From Schmidtea polychroa (Eukaryota): DNA of 64,000 nt. A program made the position numbers and the translations under genes. Location: assembly GCA_044892525.1 (NCBI GenBank), contig CM097887.1, forward strand, positions 109,718,397-109,782,396. The letters run 5' to 3'. Shown here piece by piece: positions 4,596 to 42,760 of this stretch. The number at the start of each line of letters is the position of its first letter. The stretch's first letter is position 1. Below the pieces are notes generated by a model that was not told the origin of the DNA, did no database searches, and saw only the letters and a list, made by a program, of their open reading frames with translations.

Positions 4596-5399
4596 ATGAA
4601 AAATGAAAATTTCTGCATAATAAGAAATAATGAAAATATTTGCACTGAGCTGAAATTAAATAAAACAATATATTTTGTTAAATTCATTAAGAAGAATTTA
4701 TTTATTTACAAGGACAAAGAAAAAGGTCAAGAATATATCGGTAAAATATCAAACGATTTTGAGAAAATTGAAATTAAAATTTTACGGAAACTCAAAGGCT
4801 CTCCTTATATAAATAATATTATTATTGAAGATTATGCAGATAAGCAAAATATATTCCTAATGCCATTTTATCCTTACGGAGATTTATATACGGCATGCAA
4901 AAAAGGTCTTGAAATGAGTCAAATTCGTAGAATCTCGATTCAAGTTCTCCGGGGTTTGGAATTTATGCATGAAAAATCGATTATTCACCGTGATATTAAA
5001 TCTACAAATATCATTTTGATCAATAATTTGCACTATTTTGATGTAAAAATTATCGATTTTGGCTTGTCAGTTGTTTATGATAAAAATAATCCTCCGCGTA
5101 CTCAAATTGGTACACCTGTTTATTTTCCACCGGAAGTAACTTATAGAAAACCACAAAGCTTCAGTAGCGATATTTGGTCTTTTGGAGTCATGATCTATAC
5201 TATCACCACATTTACTATTCCATTCAAATATCAAAAGAATCATTACATTTTACACTATGACATCATTTCAATTAATTATAACAATCAAAAATTCATTAAA
5301 TGTCCATTAATGGTGGAATTTCTAAAAACAATTTTCATATTGGATTCTGTCGAACGCCCCACTGCAAAGAACTGCTTGAATCATAAATGGCTATCATAA
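4596..5399 (+). CDS. Intronless, kinase-domain-only Ser/Thr protein kinase (267 aa)
   Basis: HRDIKSTN, DFG, GTPVYFPPE, SDIWSFG and RPTAKNCLNHKWL motifs; single open exon; no GxGxxG loop. Confidence 0.85.
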   Translation: MKNENFCIIRNNENICTELKLNKTIYFVKFIKKNLFIYKDKEKGQEYIGKISNDFEKIEIKILRKLKGSPYINNIIIEDYADKQNIFLMPFYPYGDLYTACKKGLEMSQIRRISIQVLRGLEFMHEKSIIHRDIKSTNIILINNLHYFDVKIIDFGLSVVYDKNNPPRTQIGTPVYFPPEVTYRKPQSFSSDIWSFGVMIYTITTFTIPFKYQKNHYILHYDIISINYNNQKFIKCPLMVEFLKTIFILDSVERPTAKNCLNHKWLS

Positions 5400-6477
5400 T
5401 TTATAATAAAATATCTTTATAAGATAATATTTTATATAAATAAAATATGCAACGATTTCAAATAATTTTAGTGTTTAATTATTTCCTGTCGTTGCTCAAT
5501 AAATAAAAAATATAGAATATATCATTTTTAAATTGAATCTGCTATAACACGCAAAACTCATGTGATTTTTATTGGTTGTATAGAAAATACCACAGTGAAC
5601 AATTTAATTTAAATTGTTTGGTTATTTGTCACTATGGTGAATGCGAGCTGAACCGAGCGTATTTTGCATTTGTCTCATGATTCTGAATGCGTGCTACTAA
5701 TAGTATTGTTGGTGTTTAGAGCTTGGATTGTTTAAATGTTCTATGATCACTAATAGATTTATAATCAACTCTTCGCTTAACAATTTCATGACTATTATCT
5801 TTTTACTATTCATGCACACATGGCGGGACTTCTCATTGCATTTTAAATTTCGGATGATTTTCAAAAGTTTGGGTAGCTTTCCATCTTAGAATTTAACATT
5901 TATTTCTAAATTCGACTGAGTTTTTATTCCTTTTGAAATATTTGAGCGGCGCTCTGCCTATATTTTCGGGAAATTTTCTATCATTGTCCACTTTTCGAAA
6001 CATTCAAATTTACTATTAAAACTTATTTATTAGCAACCTTCGAACTTCCCTCGATAATTTTAGATTACTTCGGCCGCTCCCGTGAACTCCAGACTCATGA
6101 AGTCCATCGGGTTCCTCAAATTTTCCTTCCTCAGAGGTCTGTGACTATAGGACAGAATTTATCTCGTCATTAAGAGCAACTCTGAACCAATGATGCCGGT
6201 TGACCAGTGGCTTCCCACTCAAAACTTGTTAAACCTTAAGCCGATCATGATTAATCTGTCGACCTGATCATGTCACACAAAATATAATTTATCACTTCAG
6301 TCTTAAAAGGTTAGGCAAAAATTTTATCATTAGTCACCCAGTCAAACAAAAAGTTGAAACCTAGGTATCCGTTGTGACAGTGAGAAAATGTTTTTGAGCG
6401 GCTATTTATACTTAATTTTAAGTAAGTGTGTTCATGTTGTTCGGGTTCTCTAAGCAATCTTGATCACTAGATGAAAG

Positions 6478-6584
6478 TATAAAGTGATGATTTCTTGGTA
6501 GCAGCATCAATTATTTAAAACAATAAAGTGATAATTTAAGCCTTTTACTGCGAATAATGTATTTAATGAAAAGATTTTCGACTA
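6478..6584. repeat. ~107-bp dispersed repeat, copy 1 (copy 2 at 44598-44704)
   Basis: CTTGGTAGCAGCAT...TTATTTAAAACAATAAA.TGATAATTTAAGCCTTTT.CTGC.AATAATGT.TTTAATGAAA...TTTTCGACTA is present in both places with scattered substitutions. Confidence 0.75.
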
Positions 6585-7774
6585 AAAGGAAGTCATTGTC
6601 AATCTCCTGAGATTTAACATTCCATTTTTCGATTTTTCTTTTATTTCCTTTTTCTTACTTCTCATTGGTTAAAAATATAATATAATGATATACACCTAAT
6701 TCTGTTTTTACACGATAGATACGTTCCTAAAAAATTCGTGTAAAAAAAGATATTGGTTGAATGGAAAAATAGTAGATTGATTCGATACCTAAAAAATCAA
6801 CAAAAATACAATAAACAAACAAAAGTATAATAATAAATATAAAAAAATCCTTGTTAGAGTTCACAAAAGAATTTATTTTTCGTGCTTATACATTTTAATT
6901 CAATATTACAGATGAATTATGTGACATTATGTTAAGGCTACCAAAATAAATTTTATCTATAATTATAATTAATAATACAAAGATTTAAAAGTTATTTAAA
7001 ACTTACCTGTTATTGGGTTAATACATCTATACGAGCAGAATTAATAAATTTATACGAGCACCTTATTTTACTTATAACTTGTTAAACATTCACAAAAACT
7101 AAACGTCTTTTCTTTTTAATTCTCAAAACCAAACAAAATTGCAAACAAAGTACATTACGTTTTTACTTTATGTATATTAATTATTTTTATATAAATTATT
7201 TTATATCTAACATGACGGATTTAATGATGTCTCTTTCATATTCAAGCCAAAATTTATTATATGGTGTCTAATCATTGTTGGGGTGCCGACTAGGTCAACA
7301 CACCTTTACTGTAAACCAGGGGATGATGGTCATATATTCTAAGTCAAATAATGATTTTTTGACCGCTATTCAGACTCCCTCATGATTACTCTCACGTCAT
7401 GACACCCATGATCTGCATCAAGTTGGTAATGTGTCATTGCCGCGAAATATGATGAAGCAGGTGAGCTCCTGCCTTAACTACTCCTTCACCATATTCCGAC
7501 TCCTCTCTTTTCTGACGGCCAATAGAAGGTCTTACGTCGTATTCATCGAATCTTAAGAAAAACATTTCCCTTTCACTGGGTATCTCTATCTATAACCGTT
7601 GTTACCGAAACATACCATACATGAAAATTGAATAACACAGATAACTAAGTAAGATTATAATTTCGTTTATAATACATAGCAATAACGGAATGAAATTCTA
7701 CAATACTATTCATAAAGAACACATAAACAGAAGATGAGAAAAAACGACATAAAGTGATTTCTGCAGTCCAGTCT

Positions 7775-8490
7775 TTAACTCAATGATGTGCGCATTGGCT
7801 GTTCAAAGGGGGATGTCGTTTCAGCAAATAGGTCTTCCAGATCTGTGGCATTTTCCTCGCACGACGTACTTGAAGGAGGTATGAAACGAAATTGATAGGC
7901 TGTTAAGTTTGACGCCGTGGATTGAGCTTGCAAAGCTGCTTGGACATTTTTCACAATCAATTTTTCCTCTCGCTCGGCTTGTAGTATTTATACGTTTGTT
8001 GTTTTGTTCGGCACGAGTAGGTTGCCGGCGTTTGACTTTGGCTGGTTGCGCTGGAAGAGTGGCCGTTTTTAGCAAAACGTTAGATTTTGGAGCCACCTGG
8101 CTGACACAGACGATTCTGACATTAGGAGTTGTGGGCGATAGGAGAGTGTTCACACAACTCTTACATGACTTCCATATTGGTTGAGCGAGTTCTATCGGAT
8201 GATGATGATTCAGGAAAGCGTTATCTTCCTCAGAGATCGTAATGTTGACGATCTTCTTGATGATGGTGACTTTATGCAGAGCTTCCGATTGCTCTTTGAT
8301 AAGTAGTCGTTGCGATCGGCTTTCCTTGATCAGGCTATCGCGGCAGAGTTCGACCCTAGCCAGTCTTTCCTCATCTCCTTCATTTGCGTGGCCGCAAACC
8401 ACGTTCCTTCAAACATCTATTCTTTTCTTTAACAGACCAATTTGTCCTTGTAACGTTTTAATGATAGCATTTTTGTCTGCACACGAGTAA
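7775..8490 (-). pseudogene. Degenerate, relatively GC-rich coiled-coil ORF of unknown origin (probably TE-derived)
   Basis: Overlapping ORFs 7821-8402 and 7775-7960 with an upstream in-frame TGA (KTLQGQIGLLKKRIDV*RNVVCGH); composition differs from the flanks; no family recognised. Confidence 0.3.
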
Positions 8491-8858
8491 CAAGTTTTGA
8501 GTGTTTTGTTTTAGAGGGGATTCTTCACATTTTCTGTAAAATTAATAATACGATATCAACTGTATCAGATGACTAGAAAAGAAAAAGAAAACAAAAAAAT
8601 ATATTAGTCCCATTAGAACTCCAATACCCGGTGAAATCCGTGAAGGACGCGTAAACGGGAAGATTTTGCAACTGTTGACGACATAGTTACGTAAAGAACA
8701 TTATTTTTAAATGAATTAAATCGAGATTAATTGGCTACTGTAAATTCAACGGACCTTGAGATTAATTAATAATATTCGGTTTAGCCAGTGATATAAAGTA
8801 TAGTTAGTAAACTGCTGCGAATGAAACTAGAGATTGAACTATTTATTAATATCTTTAA

Positions 8859-29433: not shown

Positions 29434-30261
29434 GACTCCTTTGTGTTCTTTTCCAAATAAATAAATAAATAAATAACCCAACACAAAATCTTTATTGACA
29501 CTGATGCAGTTACACTTTTACACTTGTATTAGTTTACTCACACTTGATACAATCAGGTTTTGTCTACACTTTTCAATTTGCCAACAAATCTCACGCAGGG
29601 GTAGATCTTCCAACGGGAGATGTCCCTTTCTGGTACGTTCGATTTTTAAATGGTTTAATTTCTACTAACTTTAATATTTCCTTTTTCGCTCTCGTCAAAC
29701 TTCTATTTTCTTTTCTTCGACCAACTGGCATTTTGTTTTCTTGCCAGTTGCTTTTATACTCGTTTGGTAATTGACTTTATTTTTGCCAATTATTTTTGGT
29801 CTTATTTCCCCCCGGGTTTCCTCTTGGAGGTCTAATTCAATTGAAGGGAATTGGCTCATTTTCTTTGACGGCGCTTATTACTTTTTATCCGGCTAAATTA
29901 ATTGCCTTACCAAAATTGGGTTTCTCCGGCTAAATTAATTGCCTTCCCAAAATTGGATTTATCAATTCGCTCGGGTTTTCCATTGTATCGGGTTTCCCAT
30001 TAGCTCGGGTTTTCCATTAGTTAATTAATTTTTGTTTTTTGTAATTTATTCCTTTTAGGGACCCCCATTGATTTTATTTTATTATAGCTGAACTCGTCTC
30101 ATTATTTAGCATCCGCCCATACCAGTTTCCCCAGAAAATATTAATTTTTTTAAAATTTTTGATTTTTAATTAATATTTTGTACTTTAAATTTTATTTGTG
30201 AATTTGGTGTTTTTGTCAATTTTTCACCTCATTTTTGTGCCTCTCTTGTTGAACCCCAACA
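29434..30261 (-). repeat. Element 1 3' LTR (lacks terminal 35 bp)
   Basis: Matches 39039-39904 apart from 6 substitutions, 2 single-C indels and repeat-unit differences; begins TGTTGGGG on the minus strand right after the PPT. Confidence 0.92.
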
Positions 30262-30275
30262 TATCTCCCCCTTTA
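30262..30275 (-). promoter_or_regulatory. Polypurine tract of element 1
   Basis: Minus strand TAAAGGGGGAGATA abuts the TG start of the 3' LTR. Confidence 0.9.
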
Positions 30276-30329
30276 ATTTAGATTCGACCTCGAATCTGCA
30301 TGTATATAATAAGTCTAATTTACCATACA

Positions 30330-30661
30330 GTAATAACAATAATAACAATAATCACAACAATAATAATAATAATAATGGATTGCTATCTACCTATTTTAGC
30401 TATTGCCTTTGCCAATGATTTTAAATCTGCGCTATTTTATTTTGAAATTTCCTTATTCGACTCCCCCCATCATCCTCACACTACTTAATATAAATAATAA
30501 TGACGATAATAACACTACCAATAATAATAATAATAATAACAACAATAATAATAATTATTATTATATTATGATTTTTTTTTGAATAATAATGATAATAATA
30601 ATACTGATAATAATTCCTAATGACCACAATAATAAGGATAATAACAATAATAATAAAAATA

Positions 30662-30715
<54 letters not shown>

Positions 30716-30720
30716 TCAAT
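30330..30720. repeat. (AAT)n / (AAC)n low-complexity tract
   Basis: Visible trinucleotide repeats. Confidence 0.9.
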
Positions 30721-32171
30721 TGGGAAAAATCTATTTTCCCTTCTAATTTAATTTTCTAATTTCAGCATTGAAATTTGATTATCGACTATCTATCATAACT
30801 AGATAACTCGATTTAGTTTTTCATTTTCATAATTTAATATTTTCTTTCAGGACGAAAGATAGAGGAAAACAGTCCAATCAAAAACTACTCAAAAGAAAAT
30901 CGGGAGAGCCAACAACACAACCAATCAAAAATCGCTACTCCTATTATTTAAGGTAATTTACCACTTTTTATGGATATATTATAATTGATAAAAATACAGA
31001 ATTTGTAATAAATATAGATTTTAATTCCAAAAACATGAATTCAGGAAATCAAGAAATGAGATTTGCCCATTCCATCAAAGATAACCATTGGTAAATTAAT
31101 TATACATAAAAATAACAAACTATTATTAGATTTCTTAATGTGAAAATGGGCGAAAATTAATATACATCCTGTAATGTCTAGATTTTGTAATTTCCCGTCA
31201 AATAAATGTCGCCCGTTCAATAGGTTCGATCGCTTACATTGTAATCAATAAGGCGGACAAATCGGCACTATTTATGAAGTCAAATTAAACCAAATTTGGC
31301 GAGTATAGAATAAGCAGCATTTATGGAATATTCAACGAATAAATTTCATGGCAAAGAAGTACAATGATCAATTTTGGTTTATATCAGATTTATATTTAAA
31401 TATATACATTCAATAACGTTTATACTTTGATTCATTTATATATGCTTAATTTTCTCGCTGATAGAGCAGCCACTAAAGAACAGAGACAGCTTTCATTAGA
31501 TATTATCGGTCGTTGTCTTAGTAAAATGGAGGATCAAATACAAACGGTAACTTACAATTTATATTTATCACAACTGCATTTAATTCTATGAAACTCATGT
31601 ATTCAATTTCATATGCAACGCTGGTGATATTTTATTCAATTATATTATTGCAATCAATAATATTACTATCGTTTTAGAATTTCATTTATTGCCAGCAAAA
31701 GATAAATAAAATTCTTAATCGCCAAAAAACCAGATTAAATAAAAACAAAATTATTTTAATGATATTATCGTTGCATTTATTGTCATTATTTAATTTTACA
31801 ATTCCAAAACAGACCTATCCTCACTCAACAACTGAAATTCCTGTCCGGATCACACATCTAAACTAAACACTACTAATTTCATATTATATCCTAAAAAGGA
31901 ACAAAATCAGTCTACTCGCCAAACAGACTGACTAAGCATTGCTGAATGGAATTAATTCATTTTAATTTTAATTGACAAATTTAGCATGAAGAATTGTAGC
32001 CGTATTTTTTGATTATCAATTACTTGAAATTAAAATAGCAACCGGCTCATCACAATGTTTCCAGTAATTATCTGATTATATTATATTATTTATGAAAGAT
32101 ATTCTCATTATTGGTACGGAAATATATATAATACTAAATTGTTTTTTTTTGACTCGCTTATTTTCTTCCAG

Positions 32172-32342
32172 GTTGGATGTATGAATTATCTGAGAAAATT
32201 AACAAGCCTTATTCCGCTAATTGGACTGGTGAACCGGAAATATCCAACTATTTTATTACAGTGCTCTATTTTACATGCAGCAGTTTGACAAGTGTTGGAT
32301 TCGGTAATGTATCAGAAAATACAGACTTCATGCTACTGGGAG
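32172..32342 (+). pseudogene. Isolated EAG-family (KCNH, ELK-like) K+ channel pore exon with an ~8-codon deletion at the start of S6
   Basis: TTCCAG acceptor and GTGAG donor; GWMYELSEKINKPY...LYFTCSSLTSVGFGNVSENTD-FMLLG (family consensus LYFTxSSLTSVGFGNVSxNTxxEKIFSICxMLIG). Confidence 0.8.
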
Positions 32343-32744
32343 GTGAGAGCTGGTTATGAAAGAAAATAATTATTCACCGAAAATTCCAGCTCTTTGTCGA
32401 GTTTTAATCAGAAGATAATTATTTTTTTTTGCATAAATATAACTCAGAAATAATTTTGTTTACTTCGGTGGGACTTTTATCTATAATGTAAGTATAATCA
32501 GGGTTGAAAACAAATCCATTTCATTATTGATTAATATTATGAATTAAATTCTAAAGAAAACAATTTTTCAAATTTATCGAATACCTTGCATTGTTAGTGT
32601 GGTTATTAGCTGTGATATATTGAAGTGATTAGAATTTATTTTAGGTCGAAATATTTCAATACGGTTTAATTATTTATTTAAATTAGGTTATATTTATATC
32701 AATTCAGCAATGTTAAAGGAAATATACCTAAATTCGTCATATAC

Positions 32745-34052
32745 CTAATTTGTAATCATTTTTAAATAAAAATATTTTCGATAGTCGACACAAAATCTTA
32801 AATCACCGTCCTTCTTTTTAACTACTACTATTGATGATGAGAATGGTGAGGAACTATCTCTTATTATATTGAATTCTTTCATTGCTTTGATTTGCCGATC
32901 ACTTTCTTCCTGATGTATGTATGGTATTCTATACGGCCGTAATTTTATTGGGGTTTCGTTGAGTAATGGTATTTCATGCTCAATCACCTGAGTGAATCCC
33001 AGATCATACTCATGTTTTGCAAATACATTCCTATATTTCTTTAATAATGAACCAAATTCTTGTTTTTGTAAATCCGTTAAATCTTTGCTTGTGATCTGAG
33101 GTTCTTTATAAATTTTTATATTTCTCGGTAACTTCTGAGCTTCCTCTGATTTGATTTTTGTTAATTTTCCCAATTTGGTTTTGGGCTTTATTTCAACGGA
33201 TCTTGCACTATAATTCGCTATTCTAACTGGTACTGACTTATTTTGGACTTTCACTACTTCGTCACACATAGGCACATCGTATTTTTCAACCAGCTTTTGA
33301 TTTGGCTCAAATATGTACTCCTCATCTGAGACCCTCATAACATCTGCATAGTATATTACTTCGCTTTTTGGTGGTACTTCCAATGTTTGGTTTAGAAATA
33401 CTTCCCCTACTTCAGGCACTATTTCACCCATTTGTCCTTTTATTAGTTTTCCAGTTCTCAGATCAAGAGAAATTCCATGTAGTTGCTCCATGACATCCAT
33501 GCCAATAAGACATTTTACAGGACTTTTTCTCATCACTGATACCCAATGAATTATTTCTTTATCTCCAATTATCAGTTTAACTTCTAATTTTCCAACAATA
33601 TTTAGTGCATTATGTGACATTGATTTAATAATGTGATTCGTTGGTTTTATTTTGGCTTTCTCCTGATACGTCAAGAAGCTTTCCGCTACTATAGTATGAC
33701 TTGAGCCTGAGTCTAATAAAGCTTCCACTTTTCTCTTGTTAAACTGTATGTTTATTCGAGGTTGTTTTCCTCCTATTACTGTTGTCATTAGTGCATAGCT
33801 GCATGGTAGACCAAGCATATTCTTTCTTTCAATTTCCGCACTCGTTGGTTCAATCTTCTCTAATTCTATTGTGATATTATCGACCGATTTCATCTCTTTT
33901 AGTTTTTCACTTGGATATACTGGTGCTGTTGGTCTAAATGTCGGGGTATACCATCTACTAAGAGTATCAATCCCGCTTAATTTTGGCATTGGTTCAAGCA
34001 AGAACCTGGACTCTGGCTCTACTTTACTCTTTGTTACACTTTTCGAAAGCAT
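32745..34052 (-). CDS. Element 1 pol 5' part: aspartic protease, linker, RT N-terminus (truncated after FCVDYRK)
   Basis: EALLDSGSSHTIV; IEHEIPL...PIKLRPYRIP...SSPFSSSIVVVKKKDGDLRFCVDYRK; homology ends ~32776. Confidence 0.93.
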   Translation of the reverse strand: MLSKSVTKSKVEPESRFLLEPMPKLSGIDTLSRWYTPTFRPTAPVYPSEKLKEMKSVDNITIELEKIEPTSAEIERKNMLGLPCSYALMTTVIGGKQPRINIQFNKRKVEALLDSGSSHTIVAESFLTYQEKAKIKPTNHIIKSMSHNALNIVGKLEVKLIIGDKEIIHWVSVMRKSPVKCLIGMDVMEQLHGISLDLRTGKLIKGQMGEIVPEVGEVFLNQTLEVPPKSEVIYYADVMRVSDEEYIFEPNQKLVEKYDVPMCDEVVKVQNKSVPVRIANYSARSVEIKPKTKLGKLTKIKSEEAQKLPRNIKIYKEPQITSKDLTDLQKQEFGSLLKKYRNVFAKHEYDLGFTQVIEHEIPLLNETPIKLRPYRIPYIHQEESDRQIKAMKEFNIIRDSSSPFSSSIVVVKKKDGDLRFCVDYRKYFYLKMITN

Positions 34053-36056
34053 TTCTGCTCCGATTCCCCGTTGTTATTATCATCATTATGATCGTCGTTT
34101 TTATCTTCCGACTGACACGTAGATTCCTCACTTTTCCGGCCATTTCTTAATTGTGCCCTTACTCTTGCCATTTCTTTAAATTGATGATCTGTAATAAAGA
34201 ATCTAGCCAACAATGGAATACAACCAATAATTAATTTCCATGACCATCCCGATATTGCATATATTCGATGTACTGACAACATTTGCGACACTACCACCTT
34301 TGCCGTTATTACAATCACGTAAATTCCAATTAAACCTGCACATGCTTGTCCCAAAAACATGAACTTGCCCCAAATCTTTTCCATCGTTTTATACTTAGCT
34401 CGTTTGAAATGATCAGGTGTTAGCAAATTTTCGTAATTTACTGTTCCTTCTCCATTCGGTAATACTGTGTCAATCATTTCTGAAATTATCCGTTCCTTTT
34501 TGGATGGAAACAACAAATTCCTTTGAGCTTCTTCGATATCTTCGCTTGCATACAAGCCCATTTATGCCATTTTGTTTAGTGATGTGAAATTTATCAGGTA
34601 TTCTAAATTTGTTAATTCTAGTTTGTCTGGAGTCTTGACCCCACGATAATCTGGTAAGGCTATCCATGAGTCGGTAGCTAATCGGTATAAAGGGGCTAAT
34701 AATCGATTGCATTGCAAAAGTTTTGGTTTAGTTTATTCATCAAGCAAGATTCTAGTTATCGGTTCCATAAATCGTACCTTTCCCCCAAAGCTTACTGGTA
34801 ATTCGTTCGTACATTTTTCGTATTTGGCAATTTTCACTGTGACTTCTTTGCATTTGTAACTGTATAATGCTTCTCCAAATATTCTCGCAAACACTCCATT
34901 TTCTGATATTAGCATAGGTGCTACTAAATTTGGATTCGTAATTGCCATCGCCATCCGATTTCGGAGAATCTCTTTATTCAACTTGCAATCGTTCAGAATC
35001 ATTTCTCTATATACATTTTCCATGATGTTTTGACTAAAATGAAACAAATAATCAATTTTATTATTAAAATAATGAGTAAGTTTAATGTCATCTCTATGAA
35101 TTTTAATTTTTGCTTCTTCCACAACATTTCTAGACACGTAAACACCTTTATAATTTGTTACATATACCATTCGACCACATTTATTTGTGATTGCCTTTTT
35201 TATAAATCGCATTCCATCTGCTGGTAACGTAGACATTAAAATTGTTCCCATTTGTTTTGTCCATACTGGGGTTGATTTAATGGTATTATTTGGTCTATAA
35301 TTCATATTGAAATTATCTGGTTTATCTCTAAACTGTTCTCCTACTAGCTCTTTAAAGTTCATAGTTTTTAAGTGCACTAAATTACACTTATTTGTTTCTA
35401 CATTATAAACAAGAATCGATTCCCCTGTTCGACAATGTGTTTGTTTCATATTGCAGAATGGATGAGTTTGTAATTTTCCTGTATCATCATCGAAAGCTCC
35501 TTCGAACTCTCTCAACTCCGTGAGATATTCTTCTAGCACTACTGTTTGCTGAATAATTTTACCGTTCATTTTATATGGTTCACCTTCACAGTCGCCATTT
35601 GCTTTCATAACTCCCTTTACAATTATTGTTTCTCGTATTCTATGGTTCAATTTTGCCTTTAAACGAATTTCTGGACTTATTTTTAATTCTCCTGTTTGAA
35701 ATGCTGCTAGACAGTTTTCTGGAAGCACCTCGACTGGCCTAGGTATCGCATGCATTTTTATGAGTGACGTATGGCTCCATTTACCACAGTAGAATACGCA
35801 TGTTGTATGTTTGACAATACACTCTCTCACTTGAGTTCTTCGCAAATCAGACTCTTGATACACATAATATTTGACGTCATTTTCTATTTTTAAACTGCTC
35901 GGACACGCACCTGGGCATTCCGACATATCTACTACCGAATAAACTTTTCCCATTTCAGTTTGGGAACAATCGTACGCAACTAAAGATGATGTCTGTGTAA
36001 TTATTGCACAAAACGTAATCACCATAAACATCGCCCATGGAAATATCAGTTTTTCT
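34034..36056 (-). CDS. Element 1 env: chuvirus-G/herpes-gB-like class III glycoprotein, two in-frame TAA (34733-34735, 34562-34564)
   Basis: Hydrophobic signal then LVAYDC; Cys pattern YCGKWSH, DCEG, GEALYSYKCKEV, CTNELPV...FMEPITRIL, GLYASEDI; C-terminal hydrophobic segments. The same frame continues through both stops. Confidence 0.75.
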
Positions 36057-36128: not shown

Positions 36129-36566
36129 TGTTAGAGATGAACACAGTGTTTTCCAACCACCTTTTTCGTTTACCCAGCTCATTAAATATTCGTTTACTAG
36201 CCGGGCAGCGATGTCTATCAAATTTTCTAACTTGTCTGACCTTGCGAACGTATGCGTTCCAATTTCTAAAACAACATAAGTTAAAGCTATTATTATAACT
36301 TCCTTATTAATTTCATTTTTTGTTAACTTTTCAATTACTGATCTCTCGCAAAATGTATTCTCTTCGCCAAATTTCTGCATCACTTCAGGAAGCCTGTTCT
36401 TCATCTCTTTAACTATTTCTTTCAGTTCATCATCTCCCTCTATTTCTATGTCGAACATTGGATATACTGCTTTAACGAGATGTTTCAACATTTTCTTAGT
36501 TTCGTCGACGTCTTGTTCTAGCTTCACTAAATATTTCTTTATTTCATATAAAGTTCTAACTTTCCT
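36129..36566 (-). CDS. Bcl-2-like domain within ORF 35955-37088
   Basis: BH2-like LMSWVNEKGGWKTL (36141-36185), degenerate BH1 EINKEVIIIALTY, BH3-like IEIEGDDEL; helical spacing fits the Bcl-2 fold. Confidence 0.7.
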
Positions 36567-36758: not shown

Positions 36759-37043
36759 TAAACTGACTATTTTTACTACGACTATATGGTTCACTAAATA
36801 TCCCACTCGTCCATCTCGGATCAAATATCCATTTTCATCCAGCTCTTGTGGTACACACCCACAATCATATAAGTATTCATCATCGTCAAGTTCTTCACTT
36901 TTGTACATTATTATAATAATTCCATCTTTTCCCAGCGTTTCAGCCGCTCTCTTCCGCAATTTTCGGACCTTTGCACACCAATGCTCATCTACATATTCCG
37001 TTTTTCCATACCCCTCATAATCTAATGCTATCAAAAATGGCTT
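36759..37043 (-). CDS. Ubiquitin-like domain 2
   Basis: KVRKLRKRAAETLGKDGIIIIMYKSEELDDDEYLYDCGCVP aligns to ubiquitin TIENVKAKIQDKEG...[20 protein letters not shown]. Confidence 0.5.
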
Positions 37044-37329
37044 TAACTCTACTCTTGCCTTTCTGAGCTCCTTGCCCAATCTTTGCAAAAAAACTTCTTA
37101 ATAATTTGGCATATCTGGTTTTCACATGTGAATATGGTCGTATTGCATTCACTATTTTTAGTTTATCGTTTTCCTCCATTTCTAATTTCTCAATAATCTG
37201 TAACTTCTCATTAATTTCATCTTCATCTCCAATATATAACGCATCATTTAATTCCTCTAATACCTCTCTTGAATTCCTTTTGTCTATTATTTCACTACTC
37301 ATTATTTCATCACTAGTAACTACATTTTC

Positions 37330-37542
37330 CATTTTTAATTCATTTGTACTTCCTGGTATAAATCCACAATCTACCAAAAATTCGTCATTTCCTAACAATC
37401 TCTCATTAAATCTCAACTCTATCATGCATCCTTCCTTTTTTTCTTTTAATTTATTCTTTAAATCCTTTACACAATCATGTGCCTCACAACGACAACATAA
37501 TACACTTTTATCAATCTCGTTTACTACTTCCACAAAAATGAA
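37330..37542 (-). CDS. Ubiquitin-like domain 1 within ORF 37015-38079
   Basis: FIFVE...EAHDCVKDLKNKLKEKKEGCMIELRFNERLLGNDEFLVDCGFIPGSTNELKM aligns along the whole ubiquitin pattern. Confidence 0.65.
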
Positions 37543-38041
37543 ATCTAACCCTGTTTTCTCTCTCAAAGTTTTTCCAAATATTTTCATTAATTCTTTAATT
37601 TCGTCTTTATACTTTGGATTCATATTATAATAGTTAACGCACAAGCTAATTACACTTTTTATCTTTCTCATACTAAAAGATATTTGACTTAATTCTCTTA
37701 ACGATTTGATTACTTTAGCCGACTCTATTTCATTATTTCCAATTAGTTTTTCAATTCTGGTCATTATCATTGTTGCTTTTTCACTTTCCAAATCATCTTT
37801 TATAACTCTCCTTTTCGACTCCTTTTCATTTAATTCCTCTTGCGACTCATACATCATGTCATTATTGTAGTCCTCTTCTGATTCAAACTTTGACATCAAT
37901 CGATCCAAACGTCGACCCATTTCTCTCACTTCGCTTTCAATTCTTTCATTAAAATTATCTGGCTGAATAAAAGCTACATTATCCATCTGCGGTTTGTCAC
38001 TCTGAAACCTAATCGATTTCTTTAATATTGGCCTTTGGAAT

Positions 38042-38536
38042 TTATCCATTTCTTGGACATGATCTGGCCATGTGTCCATAACTTCTGCATGAATGACATT
38101 GAATTTGTCCTTGTAGATTTACTTTATCTCTCTGCGGTGATGTTGATGTTGATCTTGACCTGGCAAAACAATTTCGTGACACATGCCCTTTTCTTCCGCA
38201 ATTAAAGCATTGCAAGTTATCATTAGTTCTCTGATCACTAATATTCGCTTTAGTGAATCTTTTATCAATTTGTTGCCACGCTTCTCTGGCTGCTCCTTTC
38301 AGGTATAGCGGTAATCTTTGCACCATTATCGATTGGCTCCATCCATAGGCTGTCGCATACATATAGTAATCTGCCATGAAGTCTACAAATTCCAACGGAT
38401 CTCCCCCATACTGATCTACAGGTAGTTTTTGACAACTCGCATAGTCACTGCCTTCCTTGCCATTCCCCACAGAAACTGTGGACACGGGTGTTTCATCATT
38501 ATTATTTGTATTATTAACTTGTCTTTGGGTACTCAT
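38042..38536 (-). CDS. Element 1 gag (short; capsid fragment plus two CCHC knuckles)
   Basis: ATG at 38536; YGGDPLEF...GWS...RLPLYLKGAAREAW; CFNCGRKGHVSRNC and CHSCRSYGHMARSC. Confidence 0.9.
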   Translation of the reverse strand: MSTQRQVNNTNNNDETPVSTVSVGNGKEGSDYASCQKLPVDQYGGDPLEFVDFMADYYMYATAYGWSQSIMVQRLPLYLKGAAREAWQQIDKRFTKANISDQRTNDNLQCFNCGRKGHVSRNCFARSRSTSTSPQRDKVNLQGQIQCHSCRSYGHMARSCPRNG

Positions 38537-38981
38537 TATATTCTCTACTAGTTTTTGGCTTCTCAATTTATAAAATGATCTGGTTAACACAGGTTTTACT
38601 CGTCTAAAATTTAAAGTATTACAATTACAAAATTTACCTTTCGTTTTAATTTTGACTTTTCAAAAATCAATATCCACAATTATTATTTTCACTAATCTTC
38701 AATAATAAAATCACCACTTTAATAATTTTCCAAAAATATTCACCACTCTTAAATCAAATTTTTCACTTTAATATATGTATTTTTTATCTTTTATCAATTT
38801 ACAATACTTTCCCAATCTCAACAAATTTTTATCAACTTTTTATCACGTCAGTATTAATCGATATTTCAATCAAATATTTTCACACTTTAAACGAATTTTC
38901 ACCAACTTTGGAACACGTCTGTATTATTCGATATTACAGTCAAATACTTTCACAATTTCAACAAATTTTCACCGACTTCAG

Positions 38982-38999
38982 ATCACGTCGGGCTCACCA
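38982..38999 (-). promoter_or_regulatory. Primer-binding site, tRNA-Trp
   Basis: TGGTGAGCCCGACGTGAT, 4 nt after the LTR end; complementary at 17 of 18 positions to the metazoan tRNA-Trp 3' end as I recall it (AUCACGUCGGGGUCACCA). Confidence 0.85.
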
Positions 39000-39003
39000 A
39001 ATA

Positions 39004-39899
39004 TGTTGGGTTTTTAATTTAAGTCAGTACTACGGTCTGACTCCTTTGTGTTCTTTTCCAAATAAATAAATAAATAAATAAATAACCCAACACAAAATCT
39101 TTATTGACACTGATGCAGTTACACTTTTACACTTGTATTAGTTTACTCACACTTGATACAATCAGGTTTTGTCTACAATTTTCAATTTGCCAACAAATCT
39201 CACGCAGGGGTAGATCTTCCAACGGGAGATGTCCCTTTCTGGTACGTTCGTTTTTTAAATGGTTTAATTTCTACTAACTTTAATATTTCCTTTTTCGCTC
39301 TCGTCAAACTTCTATTTTCTTTTCTTCGACCAACTGGCATTTTGTTTTCTTGCCAGTTGCTTTTATACTCGTTTGGTAATTGACTTTATTTTTGCCAATT
39401 ATTTTTGGTCTTATTTCCCCCGGGTTTCCTCTTGGAGGTCTAATTCAATTGAAGGGAATTGGCTCATTTTCTTTGACGGCGCTTATTACTTTTTATCCGG
39501 CTAAATTAATTGCCTTCCCAAAATTGGGTTTCTCCGGCTAAATTAATTGCCTTCCCAAAATTGGATTTATCAATTCGCTCGGGTTTTCCATTGTATCGGG
39601 TTTCCCATTAGCTCGGGTTCTCCATTAGCTAGGGTTTTCCATTAGCTTGGGTTTTCCATTAGTTAATTAATTTTTGTTTTTTGTAATTTATTCCTTTTAG
39701 GGACCCCCATTGATTTTATTTTATTATAGGTGAACTCGTCTCATTATTTAGCATCCGCCCATACCAGTTTCCCCCAGAAAATAGTAATTTTTTTAAAATT
39801 TTTGATTTTTAATTAATATTTTGTACTTTAAATTTTAGTTGTGAATTTGGTGTTTTTGTCAATTTTTCACCTCATTTTTGTGCCTCTCTTGTTGAACCC

Positions 39900-39904
<5 letters not shown>
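39004..39904 (-). repeat. Element 1 5' LTR (901 bp)
   Basis: TGTTGGG...CCCAACA terminal inverted repeat; TATAAAA near 39361-39367 and AATAAA near 39100-39105 on the minus strand; five 17-bp U3 repeats. Confidence 0.95.
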
Positions 39905-41945: not shown

Positions 41946-42760
41946 ATGTGCCCGAAACATTCATGTAATTGAGAGACTGATAAAAATAAAAAGAGAAATC
42001 GAAACGTTGTCACGCTGAAGACTAAATTAGCAGTTTTACATCGCATTCAATTTGGTGAGAAAATTGTCAAAATTTCTAAGTCTACCGGCGAAGTCTGGCG
42101 TTCAAACTATTCGTGATAACAAAGAAAAAATTAAAGCACATTTGCAATCTGGCGCCTTTAAGTGTCTCAAATTTAACTCGACAAAGAAGCAGCATTATGG
42201 AAAAATTATCGATTATATGGATTGAAGACAATAACCAATAGAGGATGCCAACGAGTAAAATGACTATCCAAGAAAAGGCTAAAACATATTTTTACGAATT
42301 TGAAGAATGGCAGTATCAATGAATCGACGGAAGATGTAACATTCCACACAAGCCGAAGTTGGTTTGAAAAATTTTAAAATCGACACGATTTGCAAAACTT
42401 TAAAATGAAAGTTGAAGCAGCTAGTGTCGTTGATAACGCAGCTAAAGAATATTACAATATTTTGAAAAGGATTATTGAAAAAAGTGGATATCGGCGTGAA
42501 CAAGTTTTCAATGTGGACGAGACAGGACTTTATTGGAAGAGAATGCCTGAAATCACGTACATTTCAAAAAACGAAAAGTCTGCATACGGTGATAAGGTGT
42601 CTAAAGAATGATTAACTTTACTCATCGGTGCAAATTCTGTGGGCGATTTTAAACTTAAACCGCTTTCAATATATCTTTCTAAAAATCCAAGGTGTTTAAA
42701 AGGTTAGAAAAAAAATTGCCTGTTATTTGGAGATCTAACAACAATACTAAATTTAAGTCT
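41946..42760 (+). mobile_element. Tigger/pogo transposase relic
   Basis: HTH start KRNRNVVTLKTKLAVL; QVFNVDETGLYWKRMP; LTLLIGANSVGDFKLKPL; stops and frameshifts. Confidence 0.85.

Follow-up and report, generated by a model that had tools for sequence, protein, structure and literature searches.

A tandem unit of helical bundle and ubiquitin-like domain in a young, high-copy family of Gag-Env-Pol gypsy elements

The element in the window and its family

The window, the whole stretch of 64,000 nucleotides of Schmidtea polychroa DNA that was analysed, carries a decayed copy of a Gag-Env-Pol gypsy LTR element on its minus strand, and all features of this copy given below lie on that strand unless stated otherwise. 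It codes, in succession, for gag with CCHC knuckles, a two-unit module and a Bcl-2-like domain, followed by the class III fusion glycoprotein (PF24664), the protease and the beginning of the reverse transcriptase (RT). The copy is bounded by a 5' LTR (39004..39904, TG...CA) and a 3' LTR (29434..30261) whose outer end is about 35 bases short, the two differing at 1.42% of 847 aligned bases. As judged by sequence, a polypurine tract (30262..30272) adjoins the 3' LTR and a primer-binding-site-like 18-mer starting with TGG (38982..38999) lies 4 nt inside the 5' LTR; we take the 18-mer to match tRNA-Trp, and no tRNA gene is present in the 64-kb window for comparison with it. The gag remnant (38042..38659) comprises the start of the capsid and two CCHC knuckles, is about 0.7 kb shorter than the gag of long-frame copies, and contrasts with the four knuckles found there. 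Directly after the module follows the Bcl-2-like domain (36130..36560), which lies about 35 residues ahead of a hydrophobic stretch (35975..36049), a likely internal signal or anchor in front of Env; hydropathy of this stretch is 1.8-2.4 in four of five families, with family B below the threshold used. The gene of the class III (gB/mononegavirus-type) fusion glycoprotein (34034..36055; PF24664, E 1.3e-52 and 9.3e-22) is interrupted by stops, and in the aspartic protease and RT start (32745..34073) the likeness to full copies ends at position 32774. The region from 30273 to 32773, given without strand, is devoid of RT, RNase H and integrase, and only its last 450 or so bases match the 3' untranslated region of the family; where the missing genes would be, there are about 2 kb of AT-rich, non-coding sequence that contain a TAA microsatellite. 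In addition, the frame changes at the junction of gag and module, near the end of the second helical unit and ahead of Env. The copy in the window would thus not make an intact protein, and since it is broken, natural copies were studied instead. Two further observations concern the rest of the window: a short segment at positions 56505-56582 matches the LTR's 17-nt repeat tract at 86-91% and may be left over from a related LTR, and just beyond the 5' LTR, at about 41950-42750 on the plus strand, lies a decayed DNA-transposon-like coding remnant, presumably of Tigger/pogo type by its motifs.

When the best 150 of 1,718 candidates in the genome (G000) were scored, all of them 92-100% identical, a frame of at least 3,427 residues was present in 27 and one of exactly 3,437 residues in 21. 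One such long-frame copy encodes Gag, the module, the Bcl-2-like domain, Env, protease, RT, RNase H and integrase in a single frame, with the class III Env ahead of the protease (PF24664, E 5e-70). Long-frame copies show the gypsy order of protease, RT, RNase H and integrase between LTRs, together with primer binding site, polypurine tract and a short target duplication. Among the 20 closest copies retrieved, 14 carry the two complete units in a single frame. Two copies are about 17.2 and 15.1 kb long, and their LTR pairs differ by 0% and 0.24%, compared to 1.42% in the window; all three copies inspected for it had 4-bp target duplications (AATT, TGAC and TATT). The family is young and high in copy number. 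In one copy (L022), a separate open reading frame of 497 residues after pol (7053-8546, plus strand) encodes an ISG20/ISG20L2-like DEDDh exonuclease (E 3.7e-11), and the integrase carries an extension of 600-750 residues (4790-6646, plus strand) which has no Pfam match and is strongly hydrophobic in a segment close to its end. Sequence-level searches for the dUTPase-like region that Burro elements (PMC6431247) have between protease and RT gave no Pfam or PDB match.

Two homologous units with integral ubiquitin-like domains

The module was noticed in a preliminary description of the locus through two motifs of ubiquitin-like (UBL) pattern, taken there as a sign of internal duplication, each preceded by a helical unit of about 65 residues. 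Both motifs are found where they had been placed, LGNDEFLVDCGFIP in the minus-strand open reading frame 38118-37015 and LDDDEYLYDCGCVP in that of 37097-35955; the overlap of the two frames (37097-37018), near the end of the second helical unit, marks one of the frame changes. The module is made up of helical unit 1 (37561..37782), with four predicted helices, UBL1 (37321..37539; PF00240, E 0.008 in copy L009), helical unit 2 (37056..37272), likewise predicted as four helices and resembling a TFIIS-N or HEAT pair, and UBL2 (36765..37037), with a conserved DDDEYL. The helical units are indeed present, at a length of about 70-74 rather than 65 residues, and a single unit of bundle and UBL amounts to 145 residues. 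The duplication is borne out by alignment in copy L009, where unit 1 against unit 2 reached a local score of 71 compared to 31.8+/-5.4 for shuffles (z 7.2) and UBL1 against UBL2 a z of 9.0; cross controls in this shuffle test were negative. The two helical units alone gave only z 3.1 (p about 0.01; 8 of 53 positions identical). The tandem pair consists of two homologous units of helical bundle plus UBL, and purifying selection acts on both units, including each of their four domains. Family pairs further apart than A and D are near saturation; for A against D, dN/dS is 0.10 for the first helical unit, 0.13 for UBL1, 0.14 for the second helical unit and 0.11 for UBL2, with 0.18 for the Bcl-2-like domain and 0.63 for the linker adjoining the module.

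The ubiquitin-like nature of the motif-bearing domains is supported by sequence profile and structure prediction alike. A profile of 15 units searched against the PDB matched NEDD8 (E 1.8e-4), ubiquitin variants and ISG15. AlphaFold2, provided with 11 aligned tandems, predicted bundle, beta-grasp, bundle and beta-grasp in succession (mean pLDDT 78.5), with a pTM of 0.47 that does not fix the arrangement of the domains and with a last strand of UBL2 at a pLDDT of only about 52. The absence of a predicted beta-grasp fold, which had been named as the outcome that would count against a UBL, was therefore seen in neither domain. Foldseek and VIA returned ubiquitin-fold chains for the modelled UBLs; the best figures were Z 10.6 and rmsd 1.3 over 77 aligned residues for UBL1 and Z 9.4 and rmsd 1.5 over 72 for UBL2, and the UBL of Rad23 compared at Z 9.9 and rmsd 1.8. 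The ESM Atlas provided weak leads only (0.76-0.78), one of them a ubiquitin cluster.

Neither UBL had been thought to end in di-glycine, and this holds more widely: within 43 residues after the motif, Gly-Gly occurs in none of the 19 UBLs examined, including both of the window, which argues that they are integral domains. In this they resemble the integral type II UBLs of Rad23, Dsk2, parkin and HOIL-1L, likewise beta-grasp domains inside a larger protein and devoid of di-Gly, from which they differ by an acidic DDDE[YF]L signature, by the helical bundle that precedes them and by being encoded in a retroelement. Pestivirus polyproteins carry ubiquitin inserts, and the UBLs of the element could in a similar manner be cleavage signals for host deubiquitinases. 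A UBL fold within a polyprotein would fit such a role; however, Gly-Gly follows none of the 19 domains, their identity to ubiquitin is about 15-20%, and the element encodes a protease of its own. We regard this reading as largely refuted and very improbable.

The two UBLs differ at the equivalent of Ile44, as numbered from the ubiquitin alignment of the PDB profile search. Across the five families it is Met, Met, Ile, Met and Thr in unit 2 and Arg, Tyr, Lys, Arg and Lys in unit 1, with Met and Arg, respectively, in the window; it is thus hydrophobic in four of five unit-2 domains and basic in four of five unit-1 domains. The split is imperfect, with Thr in unit 2 of family E, Glu in protein P0002 and a hydrophobic residue in unit 1 of family B. 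UBL2 in addition has invariant acidic and aromatic residues.

The helical bundle and its likeness to TFIIS N-terminal domains

The first helical unit had been likened by eye to the N-terminal domain of TFIIS (TND) and to the integrase-binding domain (IBD) of LEDGF, and this likeness holds at the level of shape, whereas membership of the TND family is not established. Modelled alone from 21 sequences, the helical unit gives a confident four-helix bundle (pLDDT 91.2). In a structure comparison with 48,161 chains, seven of the top 50 rows were TNDs aligned end to end, namely MED26 (Z 10.0, rmsd 2.4, 74 aligned residues), yeast LW (Z 9.7), the LEDGF IBD (Z 8.7 and 7.7), human TFIIS (Z 8.7), plant TFIIS (Z 8.2) and Elongin A (Z 8.1). 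HEAT solenoids tie with them (p84 at Z 10.2, p101 at 9.9 and STAG1 at 9.8), and the tool warns that values under about 13 are common for helical bundles. Foldseek found nothing for the model at an E value of 0.001 or below; by TM score the best chains were PI3K-gamma p84/p101 (0.77-0.81), yeast TFIIS LW (0.76, rmsd 2.3) and the LEDGF IBD (0.62). A search of the ESM Atlas with the helical unit gave no usable match. A match to the CARD of NLRC4 (E 0.47) was rejected, as it spans the fourth helix and strands of the UBL, contrary to the model.

According to the available text of PMC9987994, a TND is a five-helix bundle in which two hydrophobic pockets flank a basic patch. DSSP assigned four helices, not five, to both units in two predicted models. 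With TND and LEDGF IBD as described there, the bundle of the element shares a right-handed helical arrangement like a HEAT pair, the size and a basic last helix, on which K60, R64, K65, K68 and R71 are conserved in the element, the model superposing with an rmsd of 1.9-2.8 A over 71-74 residues; in contrast to host TNDs it has four helices, lacks their short third helix and Ile-Gly motif, has Gly instead of Trp after the aromatic residue of the last helix and is fused to a UBL. At the sequence level, PF08711 gave no match to either helical unit up to E 5, and among 48 PDB sequence matches of the helical profile there was no TND, only noise of coiled-coil type. The host genome carries TND genes. 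Aligned by hhalign with 11 of these host TNDs, the helical units reached a probability of 0.8-1.4%; the alignment beat 100 of 100 column shuffles, yet its score of 13.5 equals that of a TND against a Bcl-2 control (13.5), and rows of the unit-2 type alone gave no match. None of 25 PF08711 matches in the genome, 11 of which were translated, is tied to the element. As a separate observation, many near-identical TFIIS-N genes are clustered on one contig (L072, L075-L082; G000:C2:164-172 Mb, and C31); we take the cluster on C2 to be IWS1-like. The preliminary description had named, as the outcome to speak against it, helical units that resemble neither TFIIS-N nor each other; what was found is a match in shape together with the mutual similarity reported above, the match to TFIIS-N in sequence being marginal. 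The helical unit is, as far as models and a marginal sequence signal permit, TND-like in shape but is not assigned as a TND.

It might nevertheless be speculated that the helical units are captured TNDs which act in the nucleus as readers of, or decoys for, the acidic TND-interacting motifs of IWS1, SPT6 and other elongation factors and favour transcription of the element. The end-to-end matches to MED26 and the other TNDs, the fit to yeast LW, the hhalign signal above shuffles, the basic last helix and the presence of TND genes in the host that were open to capture are consistent with this proposal. Against it stand the ties with HEAT solenoids at Z values common for bundles, the four instead of five helices, the equal score of the Bcl-2 control and failure of the unit-2-type rows, the lack of TNDs among the 48 sequence matches, and, unless it is cut free, the position of the module upstream of what is likely a membrane anchor. 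We consider it rather unlikely. Less probable still is a self-encoded, LEDGF-like integrase cofactor, in which the bundle would bind the integrase of the family and steer or stabilise integration. The LEDGF IBD does match in shape, bundle and integrase share one frame, and lentiviral integrases bind the LEDGF TND (PMC9987994, available text). However, Pfam detected no chromatin-reader domain alongside, the best TND match is not LEDGF, the number of units varies from one to three, and the target duplications, though at three too few to judge, show no special targeting. In a broader version of these ideas, enveloped retroelements of planarians would have captured a TFIIS-N/LEDGF-type scaffold, joined it to a UBL and amplified the fusion one to three times, with the outcome of a virus-encoded TND that links the ubiquitin system either with the element's own integrase or with elongation factors of the host; this, too, appears unlikely to us. 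If true, it would turn around the situation in lentiviruses, where the TND is borrowed from the host. In the available text of PMC9987994, the TND is a scaffold which viruses hijack and do not carry, the exception being certain viral genomes that encode complete TFIIS homologues; should the bundle prove to be a genuine TND, a retroelement would here encode its own version of this hijacked scaffold. Our literature search found no paper that joins the TFIIS N-terminal domain, retrotransposons, integrase and LEDGF.

Conservation within the bundle bears on a different alternative. Hydrophobic core residues account for most of its conserved helical positions. The units might be structural, that is, stable and fast-folding spacers or self-association domains that serve folding, assembly or processing of the polyprotein and have no host target. 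This would agree with the conservation of the core, with the possibility that, within a unit, the acidic DDDE motif pairs with the conserved Arg of the last helix, and with a rate of evolution that is higher for the module than for capsid or Env. On the other hand, the acidic and aromatic positions that are invariant in UBL2 and the unit-specific pattern at the Ile44 equivalent suggest binding surfaces, the neighbouring domains are host-signalling cargo, and we know of no ordinary gypsy element that needs such a domain. We therefore hold a purely structural role to be possible but on the whole improbable.

Relatives, a possible docking role and known systems

Five families in the genome keep both units, at an identity of 21-81% between families. 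A full HMMER search of 1.84 billion proteins gave ten matches, nine of which are the module; the tenth (P0009) was dropped as unrelated. P0001 has both units, and P0003 and P0008 are Gag proteins with one unit each, the former with a tail that by eye is Bcl-2-like. Word-indexed homologue searches with longer proteins and with the unit alignment gave no match, which is uninformative as the full search did find homologues. Relatives have one, two or three units. Three are found in giant elements, reached via BIR genes, in the order Gag, two units, MATH, third unit, Env, pol and ankyrin. The unit right after MATH scored 32.7 bits (0 of 300 shuffles) and the two ahead of MATH are weaker; units b and c pass 300 shuffles with both profiles, and unit a is borderline, with 0 of 300 shuffles by one profile and 13 of 300 by the other. 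Integrases of the compact family and the giant element are 59-60% identical. A branch (89/94) in a tree of 21 units separates the unit-2 copies and the single units from the unit-1 copies, which indicates that the duplication predates the families; branches are long, and the placement of the giant-element units is unsure. The giant Burro-type elements (L109-L111, G000:C2:40.11-40.14 Mb, and L105-L107) encode MATH and ankyrin domains in their main frame and, as accessory genes, TRAF (zinc finger plus MATH) and BIR/RING proteins; there are at least 150 BIR matches, mostly near-identical frames of 392-393 residues. Such element-borne TRAF genes may inflate the planarian TRAF/MATH expansion reported in the available text of PMC6109357.

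In natural copies the module lies between the Gag knuckles and the Bcl-2-like domain in one frame. The latter resembles Bcl-2 proteins in its BH1-BH2 core (Bcl-xL, E 1.2e-4 with a profile of five families; PF00452, E 0.0017), at 20.9 bits compared to the Pfam cut-off of 31.4, and has kept the BH2-type W..GGW and lost the NWGR of BH1. A tail anchor is typical of Bcl-2 proteins, and the hydrophobic stretch ahead of Env could double as one. The reading we favour, tentatively and at slightly less than an even chance, is that the tandem of an old, selected bundle plus UBL unit is a non-enzymatic docking module on the ubiquitin and cell-death machinery of the host. Being N-terminal to the hydrophobic stretch, the module would be on the cytosolic side and present one-to-one with Gag. 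UBL2, with its hydrophobic Ile44 equivalent, might bind ubiquitin receptors such as proteasome subunits, UBA or E3 proteins; UBL1 would present a different surface, and the bundle, with its basic last helix, might bind an acidic disordered partner. Together with the Bcl-2-like domain, and in the giant relatives with TRAF, BIR-RING and ankyrin cargo, the module could prevent the death of the producing cell or protect the polyprotein. A shared fold of predicted models shows no function, and the part of the argument that draws on the neighbouring cargo is guilt by association.

Both the type of element and a UBL at this position have precedents, which limits the surprise. The preliminary description knew of no such module in LTR elements; with regard to the UBL this was mistaken, as planarian Burro elements have an in-frame env and, located between MATH and BCL-2, a Ubi2/SUMO-like motif, and it has been proposed that they interfere with apoptosis and ubiquitination (PMC6431247). 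In our analysis, the published Ubi2/SUMO-like domain of Burro is the UBL of the same helix-UBL unit. The 145-residue foldable unit accounts for some of the half of Burro polyproteins that lacks annotation; its copy number varies and it has split into two surface types, and the published idea of tampering with ubiquitination and cell death becomes testable with small, isolated domains. In the literature searched, the helix-UBL repeat in these elements is undescribed, although Grohme et al. 2018, its supplements or Repbase may annotate it.

GAG-ENV-POL errantiviruses with Env of HSV/gB type, among them Smed_errantivirus_1, have been catalogued in flatworms, and the available text of PMC13524379 gives them the same Gag-Env-Pol order, gB-type Env and size of about 15 kb as this family. 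Counted by eye over the first 156 positions, the Env ectodomain of Smed_errantivirus_1 and the Env of the window agree at about 126 (some 80%), a likeness that speaks for a planarian as host, and the family of the window appears, by this sequence comparison, to be close to that element. The terms "ubiquitin", "Bcl" and "Burro" are absent from the main text available for PMC13524379, and "ubiquitin", "Bcl", "TFIIS" and "exonuclease" from seven supplements as text; the accessory module is therefore unannotated in its searchable text. With Burro1/GYPSM1 and Burro-2 to -4 (PMC6431247), the compact family shares a single frame of Gag-CCHC...UBL-BCL2-Env-PR-RT-RH-IN, including the Burro trait of a UBL followed by a BCL-2-like domain and an in-frame Env ahead of the protease. 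Burro1 is derepressed in smedwi-2(RNAi) animals (PMC8532177). Burro elements are giant, at over 30 kb with an open reading frame near 4,900 residues, whereas the compact family has a frame of 3,437 residues and copies of about 15.1 and 17.2 kb, and no MATH, BIR or ankyrin domain was detected by Pfam in the main frame or 497-residue accessory frame of one copy. The Burro paper names one Ubi2/SUMO-like motif and neither a preceding helical bundle nor a repeat (PMC6431247). What is new compared to these known elements is the repeated helix-UBL unit and the divergence between its two UBLs.
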